Shown here piece by piece: positions 2,161 through 20,000 of a stretch of DNA of 20,000 nucleotides. Made by a program: the position numbers and the translations under genes. This DNA comes from an uncultured virus (IMG/VR IMGVR_UViG_3300025390_000006). Lineage: Duplodnaviria; Heunggongvirae; Uroviricota; Caudoviricetes. The notes below the pieces were generated by a model. It saw only the letters and a program-made list of their open reading frames with translations. It was not told where the DNA came from and searched no databases. Numbering within the stretch: the first letter of the stretch is position 1; every line of letters begins with the position of its first letter. The DNA lies in the IMG/VR virus record IMGVR_UViG_3300025390_000006; one strand, written 5' to 3'.

Positions 2161-2180
2161 TTTGATTGGGGATTTACTGA

Positions 2181-2648
2181 ATGGACCCGTTTACCCTTAT
2201 AGCGGGCGCTACCGCAATCTATAACTCCATTAAGTCCGCCGTTGATTCGGGTCGGGACATGATGGAGACTGCGGAGAAGGTAAGCAATCTATTTAGCAAA
2301 GTTGGTCAAATTGTTACGGTAACCTCTACGCCGCATAAGAAAAAACTATTCCAAAGCCAAGCGGATTATGAGGCGGAGGCGGTAAAACGCTACGCTGTTA
2401 AAGCTAAAGCACAGGATATGCAGCTTCAGGTAAAGAACATGTTCGTGGGCCAATATGGTCCCGCAGCATGGGAAGGCATCCAACGTCAAGTCATTGAAAT
2501 GCGGAAAGAGGCGGCCCGTCAAGCTGCTGCCGCGTTAAAAGAACAGGAAGAAAACCGTAAGGATTTAATTATGGTTAGCAGTATCGTTGGATTTTTGGTA
2601 TTAGGTATAGGCGCAATCGGCATCTTTTTAATGTTAACGGTGAAATAA
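2181..2648 (+). CDS. Phage hypothetical protein, coiled coil with C-terminal TM helix
   Basis: 155 aa ORF, GGGGA SD, MDPFTLIAGATA start, hydrophobic C-terminus. Confidence 0.7.
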   Translation: MDPFTLIAGATAIYNSIKSAVDSGRDMMETAEKVSNLFSKVGQIVTVTSTPHKKKLFQSQADYEAEAVKRYAVKAKAQDMQLQVKNMFVGQYGPAAWEGIQRQVIEMRKEAARQAAAALKEQEENRKDLIMVSSIVGFLVLGIGAIGIFLMLTVK

Positions 2649-5644: not shown

Positions 5645-6097
5645 TTACTTACTCCATAAGTCAACAATGTTAAAACCAATCATCTTCTCCACCTCATGGA
5701 GGAGTTCATACTGGTTGATTTCTGGTATTACTTCTTCCGTTATTACGTCCAAAGAACTCTCAAAAAACTTTCGGAACTCTTCTTGATCCATTGCGTTAAA
5801 ACTAATGGATCTTGCAACCCACCAGACCTTATCGTCATGGAACCGAACTTCCTCCACATACCCAAGGCGGATCTTCAACCAAAGTAGTAGCTGTTCCGGC
5901 TTACGGTACGTTTCGTGGTTCTCACAAATCTTCTGAATCAACGCCCAGAAGAACCTATGTTGTTTTGAACTACGGGGCCGTGTGATCGTCACGGATAAGT
6001 CTTTCCCCGTAGGGAACTCAGCCAAAGCCTCTTCGTCCACTAAGGAGCAAGGTTCCAGCTTGTTCCCATTGCGGCGGACATAAATGACTTCAGCCAT
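5645..6097 (-). CDS. NinB/DUF1367-like recombination accessory protein
   Basis: RPRSSKQHRFFWALI and SISFNAMDQEEF motifs; adjacent to ERF. Confidence 0.7.
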   Translation of the reverse strand: MAEVIYVRRNGNKLEPCSLVDEEALAEFPTGKDLSVTITRPRSSKQHRFFWALIQKICENHETYRKPEQLLLWLKIRLGYVEEVRFHDDKVWWVARSISFNAMDQEEFRKFFESSLDVITEEVIPEINQYELLHEVEKMIGFNIVDLWSK

Positions 6098-6722
6098 TGC
6101 CTTTCAATTCGTCCCTGCGTAACTTATAATAGTCTTGCAATTCTTTGCGGTGACCGGGGAGAAGCATCGCAATTTTGTCTTTGTTCTCCGTCGCCCACTC
6201 CGTTAATTGCTGTTGGTTTTCGCAGAAATCCAATACACCCTTAATGACTTCCATTAGTTTGGTGCTATCGTCTGGCGTAAGACCCGGCTCCATTTGCTTT
6301 GGCGCAGCCTTAGCCTTTACAGCGGTCGTATCAGCCGCCTGAGCAGCATTGCCGTCATCATCATCCTCACCCGCGACACCCACCAAACCAAATAGCGAAT
6401 AGCGGCGGGCATAGGTCATCGCTGACCCCATCTCCTGCGGGCGACCAAGGCCACCTACCGGATAGTCCGATTCAAGCCACTGTCCAGATTTATGAACGAT
6501 ACGGGTGTTAAGGATAATGATTCCATCCATTACGGACGTACCTTGAACGAATGCCAACCCGTGCTTTGCGTAGCATTCACGGATCGCATCCAGACCGTCA
6601 GAGAGGTCCACGTAGCGGGATTTAAAGTGTGGGTTGATCTTGTTCTTAGGCGGGTTCTTTAACGCCCCCTGTGCGGCTGCTAAGGCCGTGGAGAGGTGTT
6701 CAATGCTTTCACTTGTCTTCAT
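6090..6722 (-). CDS. erf: ERF-family single-strand annealing protein
   Basis: NPHFKSRY, HKSGQWL, QEMGSAMTYARRYSL...GEDDDDG signature. Confidence 0.92.
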   Translation of the reverse strand: MKTSESIEHLSTALAAAQGALKNPPKNKINPHFKSRYVDLSDGLDAIRECYAKHGLAFVQGTSVMDGIIILNTRIVHKSGQWLESDYPVGGLGRPQEMGSAMTYARRYSLFGLVGVAGEDDDDGNAAQAADTTAVKAKAAPKQMEPGLTPDDSTKLMEVIKGVLDFCENQQQLTEWATENKDKIAMLLPGHRKELQDYYKLRRDELKGNG

Positions 6723-7311: not shown

Positions 7312-8094
7312 TCAATCCCCCTTCAATCTTAACGCACCCCGCTTATCGCGCTTGATGCTGACACCGTATCCATACGCTTCCGCCATATCTTCCTCCATCA
7401 GACCCTTCAGGCCAGAGGCGGCTTCATCGTACATTTTCTTACCCGCTGAGTTTAACTGCAACTGATTCGCGAAGTTAGCCCACGCATTGTTGCCCGTCAT
7501 ATCAACGCGGCGCACCGCATCTACCGGAGGCCGTACGGTAATTGTAACTGGCGGGGTGCCATTTTTGACACAATCCCAAAAGCGTTTTTCCGCGTCAATC
7601 AAGATATCCGCGTATATCGCATCAAGGTTTATGTCGTACTTCTCCCACTTATGGTTGCCGTAAAAGACGGATAGGACAGCCTTCTCCACGCCGCACACCA
7701 GCATGTTATGCGTTAGCTGGGGATAGTAGCGGTCCATAATTTCGTCGTCCTTAGAGAACGCAGAAACGTGTTTAGCTTCAAAAACGGTGAGGCCGTCGTC
7801 TGTGAGTCCATCAAGGGTGCATCCCATGAAAGAGTGAGATAAACTAATCTTTTGGGTACCGTTATCCGTAACATGACGACCCGTCTGCTTTGTAAACCAC
7901 TGTATGTTAAAAGGTTCTGTAAAAACTCCCATCTGTACTGGAAGTGCGTCGGACAGATCATGGTCTTCTGCTTTCCCTCTTTTTATTTTCCATAATTCAA
8001 AAATACGTTCTTCATCACCTCCCATGATTGTGTTTGCATCTGACCCGCCCAATAGTTTTGAGCGGAACTCTTTCTGTTCCTTCGTAAGTGCCAT
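7312..8094 (-). CDS. YqaJ-like (lambda Exo-type) recombination exonuclease
   Basis: LGGSDA, GCTLDG, FEAKH, YYPQLTHNM motifs; upstream of ERF. Confidence 0.9.
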   Translation of the reverse strand: MALTKEQKEFRSKLLGGSDANTIMGGDEERIFELWKIKRGKAEDHDLSDALPVQMGVFTEPFNIQWFTKQTGRHVTDNGTQKISLSHSFMGCTLDGLTDDGLTVFEAKHVSAFSKDDEIMDRYYPQLTHNMLVCGVEKAVLSVFYGNHKWEKYDINLDAIYADILIDAEKRFWDCVKNGTPPVTITVRPPVDAVRRVDMTGNNAWANFANQLQLNSAGKKMYDEAASGLKGLMEEDMAEAYGYGVSIKRDKRGALRLKGD

Positions 8095-8158: not shown

Positions 8159-8635
8159 TTATAGTTCTATAAATTCACCTAAATTAAAGGTGCAGAAGTA
8201 TGCTTTCTCAGTATCACCGCGTTCGCTGTCAGTAACATCTCTGGATGTCCATTGATCCATCGTATCTGTTTTAACAACAAATGCATGTGTCCTATCTTTA
8301 TTAACGATGAAGTACGCAAATGCATTTACGCGATGCGTTTTGTGTACCTCATTGATAAGGACTGACTTGAAGGGGTAATCTGACACAGATGTAAAGCTAT
8401 GCTTCGTTCCCTTTACCTCAATGATAAAATCATTACCACTGGCGGTATGACAAATAATGTCACCCTTATCGACATACTCAGCGGACTTCGTCACATTAGG
8501 TGCTAATTCCATTGATGGAATGGTTACCCCAAGGCCCTTTTCCCGCCAGATATATTCCGCGACTTTGAAAACAGCCGCCCGTGAATTTTGGAAGCGCTTT
8601 GTAAAAACCGCCCATTCCCGTTCGCTTTGTCTCAT
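8159..8635 (-). CDS. Putative PD-(D/E)xK fold protein
   Basis: DKGDII....FIIEVKG motif. Confidence 0.55.
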   Translation of the reverse strand: MRQSEREWAVFTKRFQNSRAAVFKVAEYIWREKGLGVTIPSMELAPNVTKSAEYVDKGDIICHTASGNDFIIEVKGTKHSFTSVSDYPFKSVLINEVHKTHRVNAFAYFIVNKDRTHAFVVKTDTMDQWTSRDVTDSERGDTEKAYFCTFNLGEFIEL

Positions 8636-9114
8636 GCGTAAGCCTTTCTATTTGGAATTGTGTAAATACGGAAATGATACGGACACCATGATTTGCTTGG
8701 GACTACGGGATGCCCGCAGTACAGCGTATCCATGTGCTTTATTGGCCCCACAATAGCCCTACATTCAAAATACCGCAGGTTGTCCAATGTTTTATTGAGC
8801 GGGACGAAGTTTTCATCTTTGTGCGTCTCAAAGGTCTTTATCGGCGGTAAGCGAACTGGCTTAGGGTTCTTTATATTAAAGGAAGCACCCTTCCTTTTCT
8901 CCCTCTCTTTTCTGGGTAGTGCATGCGGCAACTGCTCCTTGGGGAGTGTCCTTTGCAGGAGTGGTATCCCCTTCCGATGACATATACCGATAACGGAGTT
9001 TTTATTCCGCCCCACTAATTCAAGCGCGATGTTCTTCGCGGAGTATCCTTTGGAGGCTAAGTCCGATACGAACTTAATCTCCTCCCATGTCCAAGGTTTT
9101 ACTTGTTGTACCAT
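8632..9114 (-). CDS. gcrA: GcrA-like cell cycle regulator
   Basis: N-terminal WT.EEI...GYSAKNIA.EL.GRNKNSVIGICHR; C-terminal L...ECR..VG...YCG.......WCPYH; start at 9114 after AACGGGG. Confidence 0.85.
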   Translation of the reverse strand: MVQQVKPWTWEEIKFVSDLASKGYSAKNIALELVGRNKNSVIGICHRKGIPLLQRTLPKEQLPHALPRKEREKRKGASFNIKNPKPVRLPPIKTFETHKDENFVPLNKTLDNLRYFECRAIVGPIKHMDTLYCGHPVVPSKSWCPYHFRIYTIPNRKAYA

Positions 9115-9138
9115 TTTCAATTTCCCCGTTATTGATGC

Positions 9139-9172
9139 TTGACAGATAAACATACAGTTGATAAGTTGTCAA
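9139..9172. promoter_or_regulatory. Overlapping divergent promoters between gcrA and the cro-like gene
   Basis: TTGACA(9139)-17-TAAGTT(9162) on +; inverted TTGACA at 9172-9167 on -. Confidence 0.6.
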
Positions 9173-9190
9173 CATAGTTTGGAGAAACAA

Positions 9191-9466
9191 ATGGTTCATA
9201 TGATTGCACAACGGGTAATTAAGAAGCTGGGCGGCCCCCGCGTCGTTGCGGATATGTTAGCGATGTCTACACAAGCGGTATACAAATGGACGTGGCCTAC
9301 GGAGAAAGGTGGGACGGGTGGTTTCATCCCAGCCCGCCGCCAGATCGAATTAATGGTTGCGTCAAAGCAACGTGGGATTATCTTAACCAAAGACGATTTT
9401 TTCCCGAAGGATGCCGATGATGCCGCCGAAATACAAAGTGAGCCCCAAGGCCGACCGCACGTTTGA
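9191..9466 (+). CDS. Cro-like HTH regulator
   Basis: VIKKLGGPRVVADML......VYKW.....GGTGG.IP pattern; GGAG SD. Confidence 0.75.
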   Translation: MVHMIAQRVIKKLGGPRVVADMLAMSTQAVYKWTWPTEKGGTGGFIPARRQIELMVASKQRGIILTKDDFFPKDADDAAEIQSEPQGRPHV

Positions 9467-9821
9467 TGGGATTACGTTTGACTCAAAGGGTGAGGCCAAG
9501 CGTTATCTTGAACTGAAACTGGCGGAAAAGGGTGGTTTGATTCAGGATCTGCAATTGCAGTATGGATTTGATGTGTACATTAATGATCAGAAATATTGTA
9601 CATACACTTGCGATTTTTCGTACATTGATACGAAAAGTGGGAAAGTGATTTACGAAGAGGTAAAATCAACGGGGTCGGTCAAAGATGCGGCATATCGTCT
9701 CAGGAAGAAAGCCGCCGAATTGTACCACGGGGTCAAGATTACGGAATACCTTATTGGATGGAATCCGAAGTTGACCCGAAAGAAGAAACGGGTTAAAAAG
9801 ATAAGCAGCCCCGACGACTAA
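9417..9821 (+). CDS. DUF1064 family putative endonuclease
   Basis: DGITFDSKGEAKRY.EL, Y.CDF.Y, EEVK, Y.L.KK; start could be 9411/9417/9420. Confidence 0.85.
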   Translation: MMPPKYKVSPKADRTFDGITFDSKGEAKRYLELKLAEKGGLIQDLQLQYGFDVYINDQKYCTYTCDFSYIDTKSGKVIYEEVKSTGSVKDAAYRLRKKAAELYHGVKITEYLIGWNPKLTRKKKRVKKISSPDD

Positions 9822-9946
9822 TCGGGACTGCTCTAATGGGTGACGGCCCTGCAAGGCCTAATCCTCAAACTTGGTCGTCGCGGAAGTTCAGGACTGTTCC
9901 CCATATAGTCCAAAAACGACCGCCTTACAATAGGTAGTAGGTCGTT

Positions 9947-10864
9947 ATGTCTTTCCAATCTATGGCTTGGGCCACATCTCAGAAATTAGAACGTGCAACT
10001 GATAAGTACTTGCTTATCATGCTTGCAAATTACGCCAATTCCGATGGCGAATGCTACCCATCTATTGAACGAATCAGTGAAGACACCGCCATGGATCGTA
10101 AGACCGTGATGAAGTGTTTTGCGAATTTGATTGAATTGGGATTGATCGTTGACACGGGAAAACGTGTTGGGGCGCGGAAAAATACTAAAGTAGTTCGCTT
10201 AAATGCTAACCACTCAACAAGTACCGTTTTTCCCACTGACACATCCCAAAATTGGTACAGTAACCTATCAGGGAACCAAGATACAACTCCTACGGAGTTG
10301 GAAGATCCACTACTTAGCATTTTTGACACTCCCGAAGAGCCGCCAGTAAATAACACCAAGGCATTCTGGGATCAGGCGGTGGGAATGCTAATATCGTTAG
10401 GGGTCGCAAAGGCTACCGTAAACTCATTCGTTGGCCGCTGTCTCAAAATGACGGGGCAAGATGAAGAAAGGGTAATGGATGCAATTCAGGCGGCTGTAGA
10501 TGCGGAGCCGCACGATGCCATCCCGTACATCGTCGCCATCTTAGGAGGCGGCAAAAAGAAATCTAAAACTGCGAAGGAAAAGGAAATTGAGGATGCATTC
10601 GCAAGACTTGAAGAAGCAAGCGAAAGGAGAAAAGCGAAGTGGAGGGAGCAATACGGCACAGAATACGGAATTATCCCTGACGCCGGAACAGGCGGTCAGA
10701 AAAATAATGAGGTGCTACAACCTCAACCACATCCCGAATCCATCCCTGATGATGGAGAACGCGGCGGAAGCGTTAGGAAAGTTCCCGCCAGAAGTCCTGC
10801 AACGGTTGTCAGACCCAGCAGAGGGTATTTTAGCGAAGGCGAAATTTCCCCCGACGATTTCTGA
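9947..10864 (+). CDS. Phage replication initiator-like protein with N-terminal HTH
   Basis: MSFQSMAWA...KYLLIMLANYAN..GECYPSIERISEDT.M.RKTV...L.ELGLI (HTH_36-like). Confidence 0.8.
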   Translation: MSFQSMAWATSQKLERATDKYLLIMLANYANSDGECYPSIERISEDTAMDRKTVMKCFANLIELGLIVDTGKRVGARKNTKVVRLNANHSTSTVFPTDTSQNWYSNLSGNQDTTPTELEDPLLSIFDTPEEPPVNNTKAFWDQAVGMLISLGVAKATVNSFVGRCLKMTGQDEERVMDAIQAAVDAEPHDAIPYIVAILGGGKKKSKTAKEKEIEDAFARLEEASERRKAKWREQYGTEYGIIPDAGTGGQKNNEVLQPQPHPESIPDDGERGGSVRKVPARSPATVVRPSRGYFSEGEISPDDF

Positions 10865-10919
10865 ATTGGTGTCGGAGGCGGAAAGCTACATGAAACGTAT
10901 AAGCAAGAACTTTGTTTAA
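10653..10919 (+). CDS. Conserved-looking replication-associated protein overlapping the initiator C-terminus
   Basis: L.KFP.EVL.RLSDP..GI....KFPPTISEL motif; start ambiguous (TTG 10587, ACG 10653 after GGAGG, ATG 10707). Confidence 0.6.
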   Translation, partial: TAQNTELSLTPEQAVRKIMRCYNLNHIPNPSLMMENAAEALGKFPPEVLQRLSDPAEGILAKAKFPPTISELVSEAESYMKRISKNFV

Positions 10920-10931
10920 CAGGAGAGTAAA

Positions 10932-11294
10932 ATGGATATGATGAAGCAGAAGACCGAAAGTGGAATTGTTGAAGAGGTACTATCCTCCCGCGAAAAAAAT
11001 TATGGGCCATTTCGGGATGTAGCGAAAACAACGCAAAATTTTAAGAAAATTTTATACGAATCCAAAAATTGGAGGCACCTATCTGATTCTCATAAGGAGG
11101 GGTTAGAGATGATCGTAAATAAAATTTCGCGGATGTTAAATGGTAACCATAAATATCTTGACAACATTATTGACATCATGGGATACTCCGCATTATTAAA
11201 GCTGGATATTGAGGAAAGGGAACTTGACAGGGTAAAGCAGGATATCGTTTCCCAAATGCCCGCCGCCAACGTTCCACAATTTATTAAGAGTTGA
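10932..11294 (+). CDS. DUF6378-like protein
   Basis: R..NYG.F, EGLEMI..KISR.LNG, DI.GYS.L; AGGAG SD. Confidence 0.75.
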   Translation: MDMMKQKTESGIVEEVLSSREKNYGPFRDVAKTTQNFKKILYESKNWRHLSDSHKEGLEMIVNKISRMLNGNHKYLDNIIDIMGYSALLKLDIEERELDRVKQDIVSQMPAANVPQFIKS

Positions 11295-11295
11295 A

Positions 11296-11841
11296 ATGAG
11301 AAAAAAGAGAAAACAAAAGTGGGAAAATCCTACAGGTACAAGGACATATAACGCTTGGAAATCAATGAGAAATCGTTGCGATCCAAATTCAAAACATGTT
11401 TCAAAAGATCGGTATGTTGGTTTGGGCTATTGCCCTGAATGGGAAAGCTACGACAAGTTTTTCCAAGATATGGGACCACGCCCAGAGAGAACGTCATTAG
11501 ACAGGATTGATAACACTAAAGGATATTATCCTGAAAATTGTCGTTGGGCTTCCATGAAAGAACAAATGCGTAATAGGTCGGATAACAGATTAATCACGCA
11601 CAATGGGGAAACCCTACCATTATGTGATTGGGCTGAAAAATTAGGAATACGGGCGGACACACTTTGGAGGCGTTTAATTCGTATGCCGCCCGAAGAAGCT
11701 TTAGTTTCAGGAGATTTAAGGGATTACATAAAATGGGAACATGGGACAAGGGTATGTTATGAGCGGCATAAATGCAGATGTACTGCTTGTAAAAATTATA
11801 ACGCAGAAAGAGCCAGAGAATATCGCAGGAGGCAAAAATGA
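11296..11841 (+). CDS. HNH-type homing endonuclease-like protein with C-terminal Cys/His module
   Basis: TYNAW.SM..RC, C.EW..Y..F..DMG.RP, SLDRIDN.KGY.PENCRWA; HGT..CY....CRC..C. Confidence 0.8.
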   Translation: MRKKRKQKWENPTGTRTYNAWKSMRNRCDPNSKHVSKDRYVGLGYCPEWESYDKFFQDMGPRPERTSLDRIDNTKGYYPENCRWASMKEQMRNRSDNRLITHNGETLPLCDWAEKLGIRADTLWRRLIRMPPEEALVSGDLRDYIKWEHGTRVCYERHKCRCTACKNYNAERAREYRRRQK

Positions 11842-12218
11842 TTGATCTTTCAAAAGTTAACAATGAAGATTTAATTAATGACACTTTAGTCAAACTATCA
11901 GCAGATGAACGTCAGGCTGCAATTGATGCAGGAATTACAATTGAGGAGTATGCGAAGGAAAAAGCCCTTCATATTATTGGTTTGCGGAAATCCAAATTTG
12001 AATGGAAAACAATGGATACGGCTCCCAAAGACCGCATGATATTATTGGGCGGCAGGGATGAAGAGGGCAATGGCTGGGTAGAGACTGGCTATTGGGAGCC
12101 TTACGATATGTGGCCGGAGGATTCTGGGGCGGAAGGTGCGAAGCCTGATGCAGAATGGTCATGGGGCGTTTGGTTTGCTCCTAAATGGTGGATGGAATTA
12201 CCGGAGTTACCGAAATGA
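11838..12218 (+). CDS. DUF551-like protein with N-terminal helical module
   Basis: WKTMDTAPKD...P.WWMELPELP. Confidence 0.7.
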   Translation: MIDLSKVNNEDLINDTLVKLSADERQAAIDAGITIEEYAKEKALHIIGLRKSKFEWKTMDTAPKDRMILLGGRDEEGNGWVETGYWEPYDMWPEDSGAEGAKPDAEWSWGVWFAPKWWMELPELPK

Positions 12219-12439
12219 CTGACACCCCACATTATGTGACGCCTGAAGAGGCTGAAAAAATGGGATGCTGCATGAGTATGAATAGGCCAGAATTTGCTGC
12301 TTCATGTATTGGCAAAACGTGCATGGCTTGGCGGTGGGTTAATTTAATTAAAGAAGTAAAAGATACAGACGATTGCGTGATACGCGAAGGACTATTTAGT
12401 ACAACCCACGGCTATTGCGGGATGGTGCGTCATGACTGA
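12215..12439 (+). CDS. Cys-rich phage hypothetical protein
   Basis: ATGA overlap; TPEEA...CC...CIGKTCMAWRW...HGYCG. Confidence 0.75.
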   Translation: MTDTPHYVTPEEAEKMGCCMSMNRPEFAASCIGKTCMAWRWVNLIKEVKDTDDCVIREGLFSTTHGYCGMVRHD

Positions 12440-12644
12440 TTGGCAACCAATAGAAACCTGCCCAAAAGATGAATGGGTATTAGTTTGTGAACCCGGCTGT
12501 CATCTTATGGTTGCCAAATGGATTTACGCAGACCAATGGCAATATGCCCAAATTGATGATCCTAAATTTTATTTAAGTTGCCGCCCTACCCATTGGATGA
12601 TGTTGCCCATATGTCCTGCTGATTGGGAGGGCGGTCATGACTGA
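12432..12644 (+). CDS. DUF551-like protein
   Basis: MTDWQPIETCPKD...PTHWMMLP. Confidence 0.8.
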   Translation: MTDWQPIETCPKDEWVLVCEPGCHLMVAKWIYADQWQYAQIDDPKFYLSCRPTHWMMLPICPADWEGGHD

Positions 12645-12924
12645 CATGGAACGAATAGCCGATTTACTTTTACCCCGTGTTCGGGGGTTGGAAATTGAAA
12701 TACTGAAGCCTGTATACCCTGATGTATATACCAATTTGGATTTGATTGAAGATAATCTGGTTGTAATCGTTCAGACATCTGAAGACCCATTATTGATACA
12801 GGGTTATACGATTTTGTTTAAATCAGAAGTGGAAGACGGCACTTGGAAAGATGTGGTTGTGCAAAGGATAAAGGATAAATTTAAACTTCTGGCGGCGTGG
12901 AAGAACGGGGAAACGGTGCAATGA
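12637..12924 (+). CDS. Hypothetical protein
   Basis: GGAGG SD, ATGACTGA overlap, 95 aa. Confidence 0.7.
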   Translation: MTDMERIADLLLPRVRGLEIEILKPVYPDVYTNLDLIEDNLVVIVQTSEDPLLIQGYTILFKSEVEDGTWKDVVVQRIKDKFKLLAAWKNGETVQ

Positions 12925-13040
12925 GAAAGTGGATAGTCCGCCATGAACGGGACGGCGACAACATATCTGCGCTGTGGGAAAACGAAGACGGCGACAGGTG
13001 GTATGTGCAGGTTGTTATTAACGGGGAGGTGCAGTGGTAA
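12921..13040 (+). CDS. Small hypothetical protein (39 aa, not in the ORF track)
   Basis: MRKWIVRHERDGDNISALWENEDGDRWYVQVVINGEVQW; ATGA and TAATG overlaps fill the gap exactly. Confidence 0.7.
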   Translation: MRKWIVRHERDGDNISALWENEDGDRWYVQVVINGEVQW

Positions 13041-13336
13041 TGGATATTGTTGAACGGTTGCGGCGCATAAATGCTTTTCTTCATGTCACAGAAGACGAGC
13101 CAGAATATGATTACAAACTTTCGTATGAAGCCGCCAATGAAATTGAACGGCTGCGGGGTTCATATGAAGACTGCATCAATGCTGTTGATACTATAATCAA
13201 TGACGGAATGACTGAGCCAGCAAAATTTGCCAAAATTCAATATAGTGGGTTTACCGCGTATAACTACATGATTGCAATGGCGGAAGATATAAAAGATGAA
13301 ATTAAAAAACGGGCCGCACTAAAGGAGGGTGAGTGA
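13040..13336 (+). CDS. Array cassette 1, MDIVERLR family
   Basis: MDIVERLR...EAANEIERLR...AALKEGE. Confidence 0.8.
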   Translation: MDIVERLRRINAFLHVTEDEPEYDYKLSYEAANEIERLRGSYEDCINAVDTIINDGMTEPAKFAKIQYSGFTAYNYMIAMAEDIKDEIKKRAALKEGE

Positions 13337-13536
13337 TGGATATTGTAGAACAATTACGCAAAAGCGCAAATACTGTTTACTCCCAAGATGGCTATACGTT
13401 TCGCCTTGGATTGCAGAACGAAGCCGCCAATGAGATTGAACAATTGCGGGATGCTTTGCGATGGGCTTTGCCTTATGTAAAAAACGATGAAAGAGTTAAG
13501 GCTATTGTTCTCGCTGCACTGAAGGAGGGTGAGTGA
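13336..13536 (+). CDS. Array cassette 2, MDIVERLR family
   Basis: MDIVEQLR...EAANEIEQLR...AALKEGE. Confidence 0.8.
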   Translation: MDIVEQLRKSANTVYSQDGYTFRLGLQNEAANEIEQLRDALRWALPYVKNDERVKAIVLAALKEGE

Positions 13537-13730
13537 TGGATATTGTAGAACGGTTAGAAGAGCATCTGCGTTTTAATGGCAAAGATCAGTTATCCCGTGA
13601 TGCAAAAAGCGCGATTGAACGGTTGCGGGAAGCGTTACGTTATATTTTAACGCACTGCGAATCTGATAGCCCACCGAATGCCAAAGCACTTATACTTTTT
13701 GTCAACAACGCACTGAAGGAGGGTGAGTGA
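13536..13730 (+). CDS. Array cassette 3, MDIVERLR family
   Basis: MDIVERLE...AIERLREAL...ALKEGE. Confidence 0.8.
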   Translation: MDIVERLEEHLRFNGKDQLSRDAKSAIERLREALRYILTHCESDSPPNAKALILFVNNALKEGE

Positions 13731-14050
13731 TGGATATTGTTGAACGGTTGCGGGATCGTAAAGAAACAATTATTGGGTGGGTTGTTAATTTTGATACATG
13801 TGAAGCCGCTGATGAAATTGAACGGTTGCGGGAAGCGTTAAATATTTTCATGGCGGTAGACCCCGATAAGACCAGCAACTGGTTGTATAAGCGGGAAAAA
13901 GCAGAAGCACTTGTCAAGGAATCCTTGTCAACTGGTAAGCAATTCTTACAAGTTTGGCCGTGGAAATGCCCTATCGGAAAAACAGATTGCAATGAAAATT
14001 GTGGAAGATATGGTTGGGCAATTAGCCCGTGCCGCACTGAAGGAGGGTGA
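13730..14050 (+). CDS. Array cassette 4, MDIVERLR family with Cys-rich tail; reads the end repeat out of frame
   Basis: MDIVERLR...EAADEIERLREAL...WPWKCPIGKTDCNENCG...RTEGG. Confidence 0.75.
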   Translation: MDIVERLRDRKETIIGWVVNFDTCEAADEIERLREALNIFMAVDPDKTSNWLYKREKAEALVKESLSTGKQFLQVWPWKCPIGKTDCNENCGRYGWAISPCRTEGG

Positions 14051-14053
14051 GTG

Positions 14054-14128
14054 ATGTCAGACCATGCGATTGAATTTATATGCAATACGGTTTTCTGGAT
14101 AGTTCTTGTATATTTATGGTTTCGTTGA
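14054..14128 (+). CDS. Array cassette 5, unrelated 24 aa hydrophobic peptide
   Basis: MSDHAIEFICNTVFWIVLVYLWFR between two junction repeats; SD and ATG supplied by the repeat. Confidence 0.6.
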   Translation: MSDHAIEFICNTVFWIVLVYLWFR

Positions 14129-14141
14129 AGGAGGGTGAGTG

Positions 14142-14399
14142 ATGGATATTGTAGAACGGTTGCGGCAAGAAATTGCTGGGTACACAGACGGCCCAATTGA
14201 GGCGGCTGAAGCAACGATGCATGAAGCCGCCGATGAGATTGAACGGCTGCGCATTAATATGTATCAAGCAATGCATCATGCTGCTGAAATTTGGAAGGAA
14301 AATGGGAAAAAATTAGACGACCAACTTGGCGTTGTTGCTTTGATATTAGCCAATGGATTAGGCATTATCCCTGACGCCGCACTGAAGGAGGGTGAGTGA
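14142..14399 (+). CDS. Array cassette 6, MDIVERLR family
   Basis: MDIVERLR...EAADEIERLR...AALKEGE. Confidence 0.8.
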   Translation: MDIVERLRQEIAGYTDGPIEAAEATMHEAADEIERLRINMYQAMHHAAEIWKENGKKLDDQLGVVALILANGLGIIPDAALKEGE

Positions 14400-14683
14400 T
14401 GGACATTGTTGAACAATTACGCAAATGTGCAAATACTATTTACCATCAAGATGGTTACACGTTTCGCCTTGGATTGCAGAACGAAGCTGCCGATGAGATT
14501 GAACGGTTGCGGCAAGCATTACAATTAATTGCGGATCATCCCGTTGAACAATCTGGGCAATGGCAGGTTGGTGCAAAAGAAATGCAAAATATAGCTAATT
14601 CCGCGTTAAAAGATCCTGCCGCCTTGGGCTATGGGATCGTTAAAAAAGTATTGAAAGATCATGGTCTTTGGGAGGGTGAGTGA
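14399..14683 (+). CDS. Array cassette 7, MDIVERLR family
   Basis: N-terminal 38 codons nearly identical to cassette 2; ends WEGE. Confidence 0.8.
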   Translation: MDIVEQLRKCANTIYHQDGYTFRLGLQNEAADEIERLRQALQLIADHPVEQSGQWQVGAKEMQNIANSALKDPAALGYGIVKKVLKDHGLWEGE

Positions 14684-14925
14684 TGTGTAACAGAAAGGGC
14701 GAACCCATGACGGGATACCAAAGCAAGAAGCTATCGGCGGAAATCCGGTGGCTGGGGCCGTACCCGCCTAATACCCGCCATGCTGATCCTGAGACGATGG
14801 ATCATATCATTGACCTGCGTAAGAAATTGGCAGAGGCGGAAAGGCAGCGGGACAACGCATTGGACAGGGTCGTGTTCATGCAAAAGAAGGTGGCGGAAAT
14901 GAAGGAGGCTCTGGGCTTAAAATGA
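14683..14925 (+). CDS. Hypothetical coiled-coil protein
   Basis: Starts at the last junction repeat (alternative start MTGYQSKK at 14707). Confidence 0.7.
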   Translation: MCNRKGEPMTGYQSKKLSAEIRWLGPYPPNTRHADPETMDHIIDLRKKLAEAERQRDNALDRVVFMQKKVAEMKEALGLK

Positions 14926-15017
14926 CCAGTCTGACTACTTTAGCCGCGTTGTTTTACGTGGCGCATACGTTCTGTTGTTTTGTTTTGCTGTGCGTTTTAA
15001 TGTGGAGGAATGGATAA
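14922..15017 (+). CDS. Small hydrophobic peptide (31 aa, not in the ORF track)
   Basis: MTSLTTLAALFYVAHTFCCFVLLCVLMWRNG; ATGA and TAATG overlaps; AAGGAGG upstream. Confidence 0.55.
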   Translation: MTSLTTLAALFYVAHTFCCFVLLCVLMWRNG

Positions 15018-15217
15018 TGGCTTTTATGAACAAGAGAAGTAAAAGTGGAAGGAGGGGTGGTGGCAGTGGAACATCAAGGATTGAGATGCCAATGGTGCGT
15101 TTGGTTTCCGCTAAACAAGAACGGCGGATAGAAAAGATACGGGCGGCATTTCAGCCTGAAGCTAAACCGAAGGTAACATTACCTAAATTTTCATGGGACA
15201 AAAAAGATGACGAATAA
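15017..15217 (+). CDS. Basic hypothetical protein
   Basis: GGAGG SD, MAFMNKRSK...KVTLPKFSW. Confidence 0.7.
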   Translation: MAFMNKRSKSGRRGGGSGTSRIEMPMVRLVSAKQERRIEKIRAAFQPEAKPKVTLPKFSWDKKDDE

Positions 15218-15416
15218 CGAATTAGAGGCGGCATTACAGGAAGCAATCGCGTTGATTGCAATAGCGGTTCATATGGCGAACGATCCTGAAGATCGGTTAC
15301 AGTTTAAGGAAAAGTGGATCAATAAGGCTAACGAAGTAGTTCGGGGATATTTTGATTATGTCAAACGTGAGGCAGATAGCGCAGAAACACGGCATCAGGA
15401 TTGGATCGGAGACTAA
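15207..15416 (+). CDS. Hypothetical protein
   Basis: 69 aa helical ORF overlapping both neighbours. Confidence 0.6.
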   Translation: MTNNELEAALQEAIALIAIAVHMANDPEDRLQFKEKWINKANEVVRGYFDYVKREADSAETRHQDWIGD

Positions 15417-15669
15417 GGCGGCGCAAAAGACAATTTGCCCAAAGTGCAGCAGTAAACGGGTTCACGCATACGATCATTGCCTATCGGTAAGGATTGACGC
15501 TACGGGTATAGGGTGGCGGTGCTTTCATTGCGGGTGGACAGGCGGGGAAATGACGGATGCTTTCAGAACTTCATCAAAAATGGTTGGAAAAACGCGGGAT
15601 CAACATCAACACCGCGATCCATATGGGGACTTACTCAGGAAGGCGCGGGCCGGATGGGCAGGTCGTTAG
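15358..15669 (+). CDS. Stand-alone primase-type zinc-binding domain protein
   Basis: CPKCS..R......CLSV........WRCFHCGWTG, like the ZBD of gp4/Twinkle-type primases. Confidence 0.8.
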   Translation: MSNVRQIAQKHGIRIGSETKAAQKTICPKCSSKRVHAYDHCLSVRIDATGIGWRCFHCGWTGGEMTDAFRTSSKMVGKTRDQHQHRDPYGDLLRKARAGWAGR

Positions 15670-17047
15670 TCATCCTGAAGGGGATGTCTTGTGTTTTCCG
15701 TTCATCAAGGACGGGGAAATAGTCGGCCACAAATACAGGGGGCCGAAAAAGTCATTTTGGCAACAAGCAAACGGAAGGAAACAGTTTTACAATGCGGACA
15801 TTCTCACAGACCCTGCGCTACACGACGGAAGCGTTTCCCTTGTTATTACTGAGGGAGAGGTTGACGCACTGGCGGTGGCAACTGCCGGATACCCATATGT
15901 TGTCTCCGTCCCAGACGGTGCGCCGCCTCCCCGTGACGCGGATGGACGGCTCATTGTCGTTCCACGGACAACAGATGATATCGTACCAGATGCCGATACA
16001 AAATTCGGATACATCACCGCCGACTGGGAAAGCCTTACGAAGATCCGTCGGATCATCATAGCGGTTGATAACGACGATGCGGGGCGGCGGTTAGGGGATG
16101 AACTTGTCCGCCGCCTTGATCGGGTTCGGTGTTCGTTTGTAACGTTTCCCGAAACCTGCAAAGATTTTAATGAGGTTTTGGTAAATCACGGTTCTGATAC
16201 CGTGCGGGAAATTATAGGGGCGGCAAAACCTTATCCGGTTGATGGGGTTTACAAGCTATCGGACTTTCCGCCTGAGGAGCCGATTACAACCTACACAACG
16301 GGTTGGGGTTCATTGGATCAGTATATCCGCCCATATTTAGGGGCGTTTATGGTTGTGGGTGGGTTTCCGGGGCATGGTAAATCAACGTGGACGCTCCAGT
16401 TCGCCGCTAACATGGCAAGGTTGCACGGTTGGGGGGTTGCGGTTGCATCCTTTGAAATGAAGGTTGTCCCGTATGTCACTGACACCCTCATGTCCACGTT
16501 TCTGCAAGGTCCGATTAAGTTTGCGGCTCCGGTTAACCGTAAACGGGCGGTTGAGTTCGTTGAGGATCGGTTTACGTTTATCGCGCCGGAAAAAGGGGAT
16601 AGTGACACGGATCATGACATTGATTGGTTGATTGACCGGATGCAGGTTGCGGTTATCCGTGGCGGTTGCAAGATGGTTTTGATTGATCCGTTTAATGAGA
16701 TTGAGCAGAATAAAAAGCGGGATGAAACCACAACCGAATATATCGGGCGGGCGATTAGGAAGCTGAAGGCGTTCGCAATGCAATATAATGTGTTGGTCTG
16801 CGTTGTGGCTCATCCGACCAAGGGTTCCGCCCATTTGGATAGTGCCGATTTGGGGTTATACAATATCGCGGACAGCTCACACTTCGCAAATAAGGCGGAT
16901 ATCGGGCTTATTATCGGTCGGGTTGGTGATCCGAAGGTTGATGTCATAACGGGGATTTACATTAAAAAAATCAGGTATCAACCAGACGCTGGCACGTTGG
17001 GTGAGGCTTTTTTAACCTTTGACAAAAGTACGCGGTTGTTTTCTTGA
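15557..17047 (+). CDS. Primase-helicase (TOPRIM + SF4/DnaB-like, Twinkle/T7 gp4-type) lacking the N-terminal Zn finger
   Basis: VITEGEVDAL, VSVPDGA, AVDNDDAG, KDFNE; Walker A GFPGHGKS; Walker B LIDP; VAHPTK. Confidence 0.92.
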   Translation: MLSELHQKWLEKRGININTAIHMGTYSGRRGPDGQVVSHPEGDVLCFPFIKDGEIVGHKYRGPKKSFWQQANGRKQFYNADILTDPALHDGSVSLVITEGEVDALAVATAGYPYVVSVPDGAPPPRDADGRLIVVPRTTDDIVPDADTKFGYITADWESLTKIRRIIIAVDNDDAGRRLGDELVRRLDRVRCSFVTFPETCKDFNEVLVNHGSDTVREIIGAAKPYPVDGVYKLSDFPPEEPITTYTTGWGSLDQYIRPYLGAFMVVGGFPGHGKSTWTLQFAANMARLHGWGVAVASFEMKVVPYVTDTLMSTFLQGPIKFAAPVNRKRAVEFVEDRFTFIAPEKGDSDTDHDIDWLIDRMQVAVIRGGCKMVLIDPFNEIEQNKKRDETTTEYIGRAIRKLKAFAMQYNVLVCVVAHPTKGSAHLDSADLGLYNIADSSHFANKADIGLIIGRVGDPKVDVITGIYIKKIRYQPDAGTLGEAFLTFDKSTRLFS

Positions 17048-17104
17048 AACCGTTATTGTATGGTTAAGACAAGGCTCCCGTTCGTCTCCGGCGGTTGTAG
17101 CTTG

Positions 17105-17147
17105 GGGCGGTTGGCTTTCATCCCCGTTGTGCCGACCGCCCTTTTTT
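17105..17147 (+). terminator. Intrinsic terminator after the primase-helicase (possibly the 3' end of an sRNA)
   Basis: GGGCGGTTGGC / GCCGACCGCCC stem, 15 nt loop, T6. Confidence 0.7.
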
Positions 17148-17167
17148 ATGTTTAACCTATTGCAAAA

Positions 17168-17199
17168 TAAAGAAAAACCGGATAGGTTAGTATCCGGTT
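17168..17199 (-). terminator. Intrinsic terminator for the leftward genes
   Basis: AACCGGATA / TATCCGGTT stem with T-rich tail on the minus strand. Confidence 0.7.
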
Positions 17200-17233
17200 C
17201 TTTGACATTGTGAAGTATGTTTCGGGGTGCGGG

Positions 17234-17464
17234 TTATAGGTTACCGCTCCGGTTCATAGGGTTGTAACCCGTTGGGTTAGGTTCGGGGTTCGGTTTAGGT
17301 TCAAGTTTAATTATTATTTCGGTTACGCGATCAATGATCGGGTTGTCGTAAGTGTCAAAGGTTGACAGGCGGTCAAATAACGCATGAACCGCCGTTTCAT
17401 CTGGCGCGTCAATTTCGTAGGTTTTAGTGCCTGAAAATTCAACGGTTACGGTAAATTGTGGCAT
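17234..17464 (-). CDS. Hypothetical protein
   Basis: MPQFTVTVEFSGTKTYEIDAPDE after GGGAGGGG SD. Confidence 0.7.
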   Translation of the reverse strand: MPQFTVTVEFSGTKTYEIDAPDETAVHALFDRLSTFDTYDNPIIDRVTEIIIKLEPKPNPEPNPTGYNPMNRSGNL

Positions 17465-17477
17465 GGTTTCCCCTCCC

Positions 17478-18221
17478 CTATGCGTTATGGGTTTCATAAT
17501 TGCGGATAACAAAACCGGATTGATCCCGTTTCGCTTTATGACCTTTGGGGGATAATCCAACAATAACACCCTTTGGATCAAGAAACCGTAAATCATGCTT
17601 ATCCCCGTCAATAACGGGATAACCTAAATACGTTTCCGGTAAACCGTGATCGAAAATGGCGGCAACATTGACCCCCCGTGCCAATAGCGCCCGCGCAATC
17701 GGTTCGTTTGTTTCTGATAGGCTGAAGGTTAAATGGTAATTAGGCGGCAATTTCCGGTTAAATCGGTTAGGGTTCTTTGTATAATCCAGAAATGGGATAG
17801 CAGGGAAAGCTTCCATAATATTGCGATAGGTTAAACCGTTAACCGTAACCGCAACCCCTTCGTAAGCGATATCCGTTGAACCGTTAGGGCGGATTGCGGG
17901 TTTTAAACCGTCTTTTTTAGCGTTATCGATTAGTTTTTGAACGTGATAGGCGAATTCTTGCATATATTCGGAACGGTATTTCATAAAGAAAACCATTTTG
18001 CGCTTGCGGCTATCCCGTACGGTTTCCGACATTGCAGCTTGTCCGGAATGTTCACCTAAGCATAACGCAATGCATCCGGCGCTTGCGTGTGAACAAAGGT
18101 TTCCGACACCGCCCGATTTATGAGGCGCACCGTAATTTATCCCGTTAAGATAACCGTATGAATTCGCCTTAACCGCTTTCGGACTATCCACCGAAAGAAA
18201 CCGTTTGAATTGAATTTTCAT
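17478..18221 (-). CDS. Gp88-like protein (Cys-triad, radical-SAM-like family)
   Basis: NLCSHASAGCIALCL, RPNGSTD, FLDYTK, NYHLTFS, DGDKHDLRFLD. Confidence 0.8.
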   Translation of the reverse strand: MKIQFKRFLSVDSPKAVKANSYGYLNGINYGAPHKSGGVGNLCSHASAGCIALCLGEHSGQAAMSETVRDSRKRKMVFFMKYRSEYMQEFAYHVQKLIDNAKKDGLKPAIRPNGSTDIAYEGVAVTVNGLTYRNIMEAFPAIPFLDYTKNPNRFNRKLPPNYHLTFSLSETNEPIARALLARGVNVAAIFDHGLPETYLGYPVIDGDKHDLRFLDPKGVIVGLSPKGHKAKRDQSGFVIRNYETHNA

Positions 18222-18264
18222 TTAAACCCCCGTTTAAATTGGATCAGGATTGATCCTACTGATA

Positions 18265-18439
18265 AGCATAATTGCGAATTAGTGAAAAGCAAGCGAAAAA
18301 TGTTATTGAAGTGAAAAAATTTTATCTTTTTCACTGATAAGCAAAAAAGCGATTTAATAGGCGGTTTATGCTTTATAATATATAGGCGAAAATTAATTTC
18401 AATTTACCGCTTGCAATCAACAAAAAATTGATTTACAAA
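18265..18439. promoter_or_regulatory. AT-rich divergent promoter region
   Basis: + strand TTGCAA(18411)-17-TACAAA(18434) overlapped by inverted repeat AATCAA-N7-TTGATT; - strand TTGCTT(18292)-16-TATGCT(18270). Confidence 0.55.
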
Positions 18440-18479
18440 AAATACGCGCAATAACGCGCTACATAAACGGGGGTTTATT

Positions 18480-19313
18480 ATGAACGATATGTCTTACAAC
18501 CAGAACCGATTTGCTACAGATACGGCTATTCGCTTGCCAAGCGCAACCTACGCGGAGTGTCCGCACAATAGCCGGACAGATAAATTCCGTCATATCCCGA
18601 CTTTTGAGATTGTGGACATTATGAAAAACGCGGGCTTCGTTCCAGTCCGCGCAAGCGCAAGAAACGTTCGCAATCCGGACAAGCAAGGTTTTCAAAAGCA
18701 CGTTATCCGCTTTCGTCGTGAACAAGACGCGGATTTACGTCTGGCAAGAGTAGGGGAAACGGTTTCGGAGATTGCATTGCTAAATGCTCATGACGGAACA
18801 AGCGGACTAAACCTTATACCCGCCTTAATGCGTTTAGCGTGTTTAAATGGTTTAGTGATACAGGATGAAACCCTTGGCAAAATCTCAATTCCGCACCGTG
18901 GCGCTAATATCGCGGATCGGATTATTGAAGGTTCATATTCTGTGATTGAGCGGGCGGATCAAGGTGCGATTGCAGCGATTGAGTGGTCAAAGGTTAACCT
19001 ATCCCCTGAAAAAGCGCTTGAATTTGCGGATCGGGCGCTTTCGATTAAATATGTTACCAAGGCGGGAGAAAATCGCGACGACATTTGTCCGATTGAACCG
19101 CTTCACTTGCTACGTCCGCGTCGATATGGCGACAATGGCGCTGATTTATGGAAGACGTTCAATCGCGTTCAAGAGAATTTAATCAAAGGCGGACAAGGCG
19201 GACGGATCGGCGATAAATTCCGCTCCAGCCGCGCCGTAAAGAGCGCTGAAAAAGATATCACGCTAAACGCTGCGCTATGGGGCTTGGCGAAAGAATATGC
19301 TTTAGCCGCTTAA
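18480..19313 (+). CDS. DUF932 (DUF945) family phage/plasmid protein
   Basis: F..IPT..IV, FQKHVIRFR, LLNAHDGT, RLACLNGLV, LWKTFNRVQENLIKGG, LN.ALW.LA. Confidence 0.88.
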   Translation: MNDMSYNQNRFATDTAIRLPSATYAECPHNSRTDKFRHIPTFEIVDIMKNAGFVPVRASARNVRNPDKQGFQKHVIRFRREQDADLRLARVGETVSEIALLNAHDGTSGLNLIPALMRLACLNGLVIQDETLGKISIPHRGANIADRIIEGSYSVIERADQGAIAAIEWSKVNLSPEKALEFADRALSIKYVTKAGENRDDICPIEPLHLLRPRRYGDNGADLWKTFNRVQENLIKGGQGGRIGDKFRSSRAVKSAEKDITLNAALWGLAKEYALAA

Positions 19314-19339
19314 AGCGGGGGATAAAATAAATTGAGATT

Positions 19340-19363
19340 AGGGGGGAATTTCCCCCCTTTTTT
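19340..19363 (+). terminator. Intrinsic terminator
   Basis: AGGGGGGA-att-TCCCCCCT followed by a T-run. Confidence 0.8.
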
Positions 19364-19364
19364 A

Positions 19365-19393
19365 TTGAATTGTTAATCAAATCAATTTATTCT
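19365..19393 (+). promoter_or_regulatory. Putative sigma70 promoter
   Basis: TTGAAT-17-TATTCT. Confidence 0.6.
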
Positions 19394-19439
19394 CTTTCTT
19401 GTCGGAATGATCCGACGATATCAGAAACGGGGGTTTCTT

Positions 19440-19712
19440 ATGAATAACGCAATTGAATTGCTACAGTCTGAATTGAGCGCCGTAATTGCTTTAAATGCAA
19501 AGCTTGAAGCTAAGATAGCCGCCTTGGTATGGAAGGCGGACGATTGCGGCGATATAGTCCGCGCCTATCGCTTTAAGTTTAACAATAAGCGGGGACTTGT
19601 TGAAGTGTATACAAATAAGACGCGGCTATTTTATGCGGGTAAAGAATATGCTCCGGAACAAGCGCCGTCTGACATGATAGCCGCTGCGATACAAGCTGAT
19701 CCGGAATTTTAG
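19440..19712 (+). CDS. Hypothetical protein
   Basis: MNNAIELLQ start after GGGGG SD; own promoter and terminator. Confidence 0.7.
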   Translation: MNNAIELLQSELSAVIALNAKLEAKIAALVWKADDCGDIVRAYRFKFNNKRGLVEVYTNKTRLFYAGKEYAPEQAPSDMIAAAIQADPEF

Positions 19713-19769
19713 GGTCCGCAATGGCTTAAGGCGGCCATATAGTAAGACAAGAATATAAGGGGATTTAGG

Positions 19770-19797
19770 GGGGAGATTGTATCTCCCCTTTTCTTTT
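19770..19797 (+). terminator. Intrinsic terminator
   Basis: GGGGAGAT-tgt-ATCTCCCC followed by TTTTCTTTT. Confidence 0.75.
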
Positions 19798-20000
19798 ATC
19801 TGATAGCAGGGGAATTGAGGCGCTGATAGCAATAGGCTGAAATATAAGGCAGAAAGCCCTTTTCTTCTTACAGGGGTAGGGGTCTGCCGTGATGATACAA
19901 AATGCTAATCACTGGCACGCTTCCGTGGTGTGCAATTTGTATAAGTAGTGAGCCGTCAAGGATCATTTATGCTAATCAGTGAAGTAAGCAATAATGCTAA

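Follow-up and report, generated by a model that had tools for sequence, protein, structure and literature searches.

In T4-type phages, PeSL (promoter-early stem-loop) cassettes carry short, conserved and repeated motifs that lie between small non-essential ORFan genes in hyperplastic regions; the motifs bound insertions, deletions and replacements between close relatives, and recombination between them has been proposed as the shuffler (Arbiol et al. 2010, PMC2839356; see also Comeau et al. 2014, PMC4122927). In Cluster K mycobacteriophages, repeats containing a Shine-Dalgarno (SD) sequence, the start-associated sequences (SAS), precede the start codons of non-structural genes (Pope et al. 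2011, PMC3203893), and for lambdoid phages homologous recombination at short conserved inter-module sequences, called boundary or linker sequences, is said to yield mosaicism (work cited in PMC3029335). Here we describe a repeated linker that joins the small genes of an array in the IMG/VR virus record IMGVR_UViG_3300025390_000006, an uncultured virus of the Caudoviricetes; the 20,000-nt stretch analysed is referred to as the window. We consider it reasonably probable that this element, whose core is the 15-mer GGAGGGTGAGTGATG, serves a freshwater phage group as a portable linker between genes of the accessory ('hyperplastic') early region, and that it doubles as an exchange patch.

The array resembles the PeSL regions in that an indel and an identity switch between the window and a relative, L096 (relatives are given L numbers), are bounded by the repeat in a region of small ORFans. 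A PeSL combines a sigma-70-like promoter with a terminator stem-loop, whereas the linker has no promoter or terminator signal above chance and no stable hairpin; its signals are those of translation (stops, SD and start), and it overlaps coding sequence. Mini-circles have been shown for PeSL but not for linker cassettes. With SAS (PMC3203893) the linker has in common that it is short and asymmetric, that its SD core sits a few nt before starts (mostly ATG), that it keeps a single orientation before varied gene families in the non-structural region only, and that the upstream stop sometimes lies within the repeat. The SAS consensus is 5'-GGGATAGGAGCCC as against GGAGGGTGAGTGATG here, and the host phylum also differs. 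The 17-bp inverted repeats called ESAS, found at about half of SAS sites (PMC3203893), have no counterpart flanking the linker; the stop/start overlap belongs to the linker at nearly every copy, unlike SAS; and whereas the linker is tied to mosaic boundaries, the available text of PMC3203893 does not report SAS as mosaic breakpoints. The linker is an analogue of SAS, not a member. As for boundary sequences, the model is, according to PMC3029335, usually said to fail at most junctions, and clear cases of it are few because conserved boundary sequences are usually absent there. In this locus a linker stands at nearly every array junction, and a short conserved sequence is present in both partners of a mosaic junction; a second kind of linker lies inside genes, unlike the lambdoid sequences. 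As a case of the boundary-sequence model the array is unusually full. This in-frame internal linker and the dual-frame-stop design are new features of an element whose underlying kind is already known.

In integron arrays, as in the linker array, small promoterless genes follow one another in one orientation, and relatives differ in their number and order; integrons also have an IntI integrase, attI/attC hairpins and circular cassettes. An earlier account of the window, made from its letters alone (the sequence-only reading), had proposed an integrase-free, integron-like platform. The linker array has no IntI, no attI/attC hairpins and no evidence of circles, and its exchange is apparently homology-driven; it is not an integron. 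The cassette idea finds support in an evolutionary sense but not as an integron-like platform.

The seven exact + strand copies of GGAGGGTGAGTGATG lie at 13324, 13524, 13718, 14042, 14130, 14387 and 14671, spaced 200, 194, 324, 88, 257 and 284 nt apart, and a recount agreed with the sequence-only reading in every position and spacing. Every copy is a gene junction. Chance would give 0.01 copies (200 shuffles, none of which reached seven), the window has no extra site at up to two mismatches, and a near-identical record, G001, has the same seven copies. Five of the seven are accompanied by GCACT(G/A)AA on the upstream side and five by GA(T/C)ATTGT on the downstream side. The 15-mer forms the core of a linker of ~26 nt with the consensus GCCGCACTGAAGGAGGGTGAGTGATG; in relatives its left arm reaches ~33 nt. 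The linker holds TGA in two of the three frames (GGAGGG-TGA-G-TGA-TG), a GGAGG SD placed 7 nt 5' of the ATG, and the next ATG itself, which overlaps the stop as TGATG. In the commonest frame the upstream gene ends ...A-L-K-E-G-E-stop and the downstream gene usually begins MDIVE, and the sequence-only reading had described the repeat correctly in these terms. Other gene starts on the same strand of the window match the linker at 5-15 of 26 positions, so the linker is peculiar to the array and distinct from the ribosome site that the phage normally uses. The array lies between replication genes, within a run of small + strand genes, and is made up as follows.

13040-13336, + strand: P1, MDIVE type, 98 residues; its own upstream sequence is a degenerate linker (10/26)
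13127-13165, + strand: internal in-frame linker in P1, encoding EAANEIERLR
13313-13338, + strand: linker 1 (GCCGCACTAAAGGAGGGTGAGTGATG), with the end of P1, SD, TGA/ATG overlap and P2 start; 25/26 to consensus
13336-13536, + strand: P2 cassette, 66 residues (MDIVEQLRK...ALKEGE)
13513-13538, + strand: linker 2, P2/P3 junction; 25/26
13536-13730, + strand: P3 cassette, 64 residues
13707-13732, + strand: linker 3, P3/P4 junction; 24/26
13730-14050, + strand: P4 cassette, 106 residues
14031-14056, + strand: linker 4, starting a gene for a 24-residue peptide; 26/26
14054-14128, + strand: cassette of the 24-residue hydrophobic peptide (MSDHAIEF...), family 6, in 3 stretches
14119-14144, + strand: linker 5, starting P5; 21/26
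14142-14399, + strand: P5 cassette, 85 residues
14376-14401, + strand: linker 6, P5/P6 junction; 26/26
14399-14683, + strand: P6 cassette, 94 residues
14660-14685, + strand: linker 7, core only, 18/26; the upstream tail encodes ...LWEGE, and it starts an unrelated gene
14683-14925, + strand: last linker-preceded gene, 80 residues, not of MDIVE type
13420-13458, 13599-13637, 13802-13840, 14223-14261 and 14483-14521, + strand: other copies of the internal linker

Two junctions depart from the common frame, and the sequence-only reading had pointed to both. P4 reads linker 4 (copy at 14042) in another frame and ends at its first TGA (14048-14050), while linker 5 (copy at 14130) comes after the TGA of the peptide gene (14126-14128), so that the left half of linker 5 does not code for protein. 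In comparison with L166 and L107, P4 has lost 1 nt near 14015; the loss removes a TAG present in both relatives, so that the open reading frame (ORF) runs through the linker out of frame. The first linker TGA closes this ORF 30 nt later, the two-frame stop serving as a safety net. Where GTTGAAC follows the start of an MDIVE cassette (13037-13075, 13727-13765 and 14139-14177), the third frame too runs into a TGA, 9 nt inside the next gene, so some junctions stop all three frames. Just 5' of the array, a 39-residue gene (MRKWIVRHE..., 12921-13040) is preceded by a degenerate linker with ~8/26 matches, and its homologue at L028:3974 has a perfect linker in front; the edge of the array seems to be a place where linkers are acquired or decay.

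No blastn match to 12600-15300 was found among 50,697 GenBank phage records, and the 23-mer GCACTGAAGGAGGGTGAGTGATG had no match in 185,579 prokaryote genomes, which leaves no prophage or host lead. In IMG/VR the 23-mer, which includes the MDIV start, is found in 34 stretches, 25 of them carrying 2-7 copies of the 15-mer, and the 17-mer AAGGAGGGTGAGTGATG in at least 134. Removal of contained stretches left 117 related stretches, 841 kb in total, among the matches listed. Their + strands hold 170 exact copies of AAGGAGGGTGAGTGATG and 62, 32, 27 and 41 with one, two, three and four mismatches; on the - strand there are 3 exact copies and 0, 1, 2 and 4 at the same distances. As each stretch entered the set through one exact copy, that copy has to be discounted, and of the 215 copies left only ~53, about a quarter, are exact. 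The core is not invariant across the population, and the window's seven identical copies are the uniform end of a range; the invariance claimed by the sequence-only reading holds within this genome.

Of these stretches, 45 (from 44 contigs) have at least two sites, at least two of them with extended context, and form the family set used below; the other 72 are mostly 617-nt fragments or unrelated phages. When cassettes were grouped at a minimum of 70% identity over at least 80% of length, 193 cassettes fell into 130 families, 100 of which are singletons. The 12 families seen at least three times have 45 distinct right neighbours in 51 instances and 40 distinct left neighbours in 47. Cassette order is not fixed among relatives: number, order and content, which the sequence-only reading had proposed to compare, all differ, and the differences start and end at the repeat. 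P2 and P3 are absent from L096, and are found beside other genes in L063 (P2, 96.6% identical) and in L022 (P3, 97%).

In relatives the linker precedes genes that are unrelated to one another, including an 82-residue MKTDYEKLQ family, zinc-ribbon-like CxxC or Cys-rich proteins, hydrophobic peptides and a putative methyltransferase, and the tail AALKEGE is common to many of these linker-bounded genes. Hydrophobic peptides of 24-37 residues occupy several cassettes (MSDHAIEF..., MEIGTNLAQ..., MADKHLVAC...; families 6, 8, 10, 18 and 23 of the relatives), and L063 has the MEIGTNLAQ cassette twice within one array. Cassettes also pass between backbones. The MSDHAIEF peptide cassette has 93.5% nucleotide identity in L093, and cassettes compared with that relative are 93.5-96.2% identical, while its ERF protein is 44% and its YqaJ protein 54% identical to those of the window, which indicates transfer between distant backbones. 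L078 has two linker arrays on opposite strands, at 1550-2526 (-) and 7316-8017 (+). Its minus block comprises a putative methyltransferase (NPPF motif), one gene each of the MKTD and MDIVE types and a hydrophobic protein, in the same order as in L066 (families 65-0-66-67). With cassette blocks in both divergent operons of L078, direct-repeat exchange alone is no explanation.

The positions at which homology between relatives breaks off were mapped by all-against-all blastn of the 45 array regions, with blocks of at least 100 nt and at least 85% identity; self-hits and ends less than 15 nt from a region edge were removed and each position was counted once. Of 478 left block ends, 60% fell within -45 to +5 of a junction ATG (null 12%), as did 42% of 522 right ends within -5 to +45 (null 13%). 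Stricter thresholds placed 66-67% of left ends and 45-53% of right ends at junctions. A further 187 of the 495 block ends elsewhere lie at the internal linker, a segment of ~30 nt encoding EAADEIERLR. Breakpoint histograms show exchange points spread across the linker arms, with no single fixed position. One case is the comparison with L096. To the right of the junction at 13718 the two are 100.0% identical over 6,291 nt (window 13710-20000); to the left, window 12397-13351 has 86.6% identity, and 13352-13709, with P2 and P3, is missing from L096. This switch in identity appears to mark a recent event.

The internal linker is repeat family D2 in the window, with six copies that are 69-100% identical, and the sequence-only reading is silent on it. 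The N- and C-terminal halves of MDIVE proteins appear to recombine combinatorially at this in-frame EAADEIERLR linker. Clustering of the modules in the 64 complete MDIVE-type cassettes gave 30 N-module and 36 C-module clusters, paired in 48 different ways. Among modules that recur, 10 of 12 N modules have at least two different C-module partners, and 9 of 16 C modules have at least two different N-module partners. In P1 the N half is 95.8% identical to L114 and the C half 96% to L043, with the break at the internal linker; the N half of P3 is joined to a different C half in L093; and P6 and P2 have like N modules (87% nucleotide identity over 150 nt, repeat family D3) and different C modules. 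The protein database gives the same picture for P5: many relatives match only its first 42-52%, at 74-97% identity, and an alignment of P5-like proteins shows a single C module with at least eight different N modules. Some proteins have a third module between two EIERLR motifs.

These results suggest the following scheme. The linker would close the upstream frame and offer an SD and an overlapping ATG to the next gene, so that any ORF placed between two linkers would be translated by coupling, without a promoter or ribosome site of its own. Since the linker bounds many unrelated genes, it would serve as a homology patch at which co-infecting phages swap whole genes. The internal EAADEIERLR patch would let N- and C-terminal halves swap likewise, and a family of small helical proteins in many combinations would result. 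We hold homologous exchange between linkers to be the most likely mechanism, in agreement with published evidence that Erf/Exo pairs recombine homologies that are short or diverged. The ERF and YqaJ proteins could plausibly be the enzymes; both genes lie where the sequence-only reading had put them, the ERF single-strand annealing protein at 6090-6719 (-) and the YqaJ/RecE-like exonuclease at 7312-8091 (-), by Pfam and PHROGs. According to PMC3945230, an Erf/Exo pair is as proficient as lambda Red in recombining diverged sequences, and a length of 23-27 bp is quoted there for the minimal pairing segment of Redbeta. Exact identity between pairs of junctions in the window has a median of 23 nt and a range of 15-36 nt, and reaches at least 23 nt in 11 of the 21 pairs.

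Several observations weigh against this scheme. In 16 junction-spanning homology blocks the linker has 8-12% mismatch as compared with 7-13% in the gene bodies, and orthologous comparisons thus show little extra constraint on the linker. The MKTD cassette brings its own left arm, leaving a common core of 15-17 nt, a small target for recombination by annealing. Breaks at gene boundaries are also what illegitimate recombination with subsequent selection would give, and so the clustering of breakpoints at linkers is no proof of causation. The L096-type junction is represented by one contig. All relatives are short-read metagenome assemblies, in which repeats of 25-55 nt could give chimeric joins; several contigs end within the array, among them L026 and L031, which break off in P4 at its internal linker. 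Logan contigs from four runs contain no clean deletion junction or circle. Finally, the 15-mer recurs at serial junctions, but with no extended arms, in L081, L113, L082, L042 and L089, whose proteins show no detectable homology to those of the window; its presence in unrelated phages that lack the arms suggests that translation mainly shapes the core. In L081 (53% GC), 10 consecutive junctions (L081:3642-6872) have GGAGGGTGAGTGATG or a variant with at most two mismatches, and the genes upstream mostly end ...EGE-stop, with nothing conserved outside the core.

The strongest rival, which we regard as rather unlikely and still a real contender, is that the repeat is purely an element of translation or regulation, a 'start-associated sequence', and that shuffling is incidental mosaicism that respects gene boundaries. 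The repeat might then be an optimised ribosome site with a stop/start overlap, or the site of a phage or host factor that co-regulates small early genes. GGAGG at a fixed distance from the ATG fits such an element, as do the near-single orientation (170 exact copies on + against 3 on -), the restriction to a non-structural region of small genes, as for SAS in Cluster K (PMC3203893), and the reuse of the 15-mer, without arms, by unrelated phages. The RNA is also weakly folded at the junctions, which suits initiation: folds gave z scores of -2.4 to +1.6, six of the seven being no better than shuffles. An RNA hairpin over the SD (GCCGCA...TGCGGC) was considered and rejected, the folds giving no support for it.

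Conservation outside the SD does not fit a purely translational element. In a profile of 180 junctions, each with a different pair of neighbours, conservation at positions -23 to -15 (GCCGCACTG), which lie outside the search pattern, is 0.59-0.94, and within GCCGCACTG it is as high at third codon positions as at first and second ones. In many stretches different genes terminate in an identical 33-34 nt, (T)AGCCCGTGCCGCACTGAAGGAGGGTGAGTGATG, and in L166 and L107 this sequence comes after a TAG stop. Conservation thus extends at least 9 nt 5' of the SD (GCCGCACTG) and often ~18 nt (AGCCCGTGCCGCACTG), which is unneeded for ribosome binding; at the nucleotide level it exceeds what an SD requires. 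The sequence-only reading had argued for constraint on the DNA or RNA itself, and the argument is supported by a linker that flanks unrelated genes, is kept where non-coding or out of frame and has conserved third positions. Moreover, the internal block, which has no start codon, shows the same kind of clustering of breakpoints, and the switch from 100% to 86.6% identity with L096 falls at a linker. The core is probably shaped chiefly by translation (SD, spacing and stop/start overlap), and we take the linker arms to be homology that travels with the cassettes.

Mis-joining of co-occurring strains at linkers by short-read assemblers could also produce shuffled arrays, an explanation that we hold to be quite improbable. 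The region is present as Logan contigs in 24 public freshwater metagenome runs. In the four runs followed up, contigs end at repeats, and the sequence continues in several alternative ways from 14056, from 14024 and from the P4 internal linker. Logan pieces break exactly at repeats (13322-13542, 13526-13739 and 13710-14058), one run has several continuations at 14056 and 13801-13839, and IMG/VR contigs end inside arrays, all as mis-joining would have it. Branching of the graph, however, itself needs molecules with the same linker and different neighbours. Common cassettes differ by 2-15% between contigs, on backbones down to 44% ERF protein identity, and multi-cassette orders recur across samples (families 0-5-1 in L022 and L165, 65-0-66-67 in L066 and L078). 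Whole stretches are also contained in stretches from other samples: L055 contains stretches from two further contigs, and the arrangement of L017 is found in three contigs. Cross-sample recurrence, cassette divergence of 2-15% and distant backbones reduce the risk of chimeras, which is still present. In the 'goes back' joints among the Logan contigs, unknown letters stand between two short sides, and these joints are better read as other chimeric cassettes.

Simple paralogy, that is, a tandem gene family with conserved termini and an ordinary SD, has little to recommend it and is very improbable. Five of the seven genes that follow repeat copies, and P1, are MDIVE-type paralogues with three common motifs, and the 150 nt at 87% identity in P2 and P6 agree with such a family. 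The linker, however, also bounds non-homologous genes, in the window (the peptide at 14054 and the gene at 14683) and in relatives; it is conserved where non-coding or out of frame, gene order in the relatives is variable, and third codon positions are not relaxed. A true site-specific, integron-like cassette system with an unrecognised recombinase is hardly credible: the cassette-like architecture, a core exactly identical within the genome and the L078 cassette block on the opposite backbone strand would suit it, but a scan of 29 window ORFs revealed neither an integrase nor another site-specific recombinase (Pfam and PHROGs, 20 kb only; the only integrase hint is a marginal phrog_24671 match, E 4.5e-4, to 25 residues of the HNH protein), the junctions have no attC-like fold, hairpin or inverted-repeat site (two inverted repeats in 12500-15500, none at a junction), no circle was seen, and breakpoints fall also at a different sequence, the internal linker, and are spread over the linker arms.

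The linkers may be maintained for the very portability that they give to genes, as a 'plug-and-play' junction standard (stops in two or three frames, an SD and a start) by which any ORF could be expressed in any phage that uses the standard; this we put forward tentatively, as possible and short of likely. In-frame linkers, sometimes two or three per protein, would then let protein halves assemble combinatorially. Both kinds of linker together would yield a library of small early proteins that evolves fast, with host takeover or counter-defence as possible roles, common to backbones as distant as 44% ERF protein identity. The 15-mer in L081-type phages either arose by convergence, as the best junction for coupling, or belongs to an exchange standard that the phages share, and under plug-and-play maintenance it would be the latter. 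This reuse by unrelated phages, and the analogy with PeSL and SAS, had not figured in the sequence-only reading.

The origin and reshuffling of phages' many small genes is a long-standing question. Here nearly every accessory junction carries a linker, breakpoints can be mapped, and genes and half-genes behave as interchangeable parts. The array offers a natural test case for homology-driven exchange at patches of 15-35 nt by ERF-type recombinases, for translation signals that double as recombination signals, and for a source of combinatorial small early proteins. For synthetic operons, moreover, the dual-frame-stop/SD/start linker offers a compact way to couple arbitrary ORFs.

The cassette proteins gave few leads. 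The six MDIVE-type proteins have no Pfam, PHROGs or PADLOC family, the one marginal match among cassette proteins being PF13446 on P6 (E 0.0093, below the curated cut-off), and no relevant paper on the motifs DIVERLR, EIERLR and ALKEGE was found in open-access full text. P5 has 88 relatives in the protein database, all metagenome-derived, with no informative name and no Pfam domain; its predicted structure is all-helical (pLDDT 70, pTM 0.44) and too uncertain for a fold search. ESM Atlas matches were to unnamed clusters only, plus a weak Ead_Ea22 lead (score 0.81). Rfam gave no match over 12000-15600 at E up to 1. Promoter-like sites in 9000-17500 numbered 10 against 14.6 expected, and terminator-like sites 9 against 8.1, none of either at a junction core. 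Elsewhere the window encodes NinB, an O-like replication initiator, an HNH endonuclease, a primase/helicase (15557-17044) and an endolysin (Pfam, PHROGs). It also has a gene for a GcrA-like cell-cycle regulator at 8632-9150 (-) (PF07750, E 2.7e-12), which hints at an alphaproteobacterial host.

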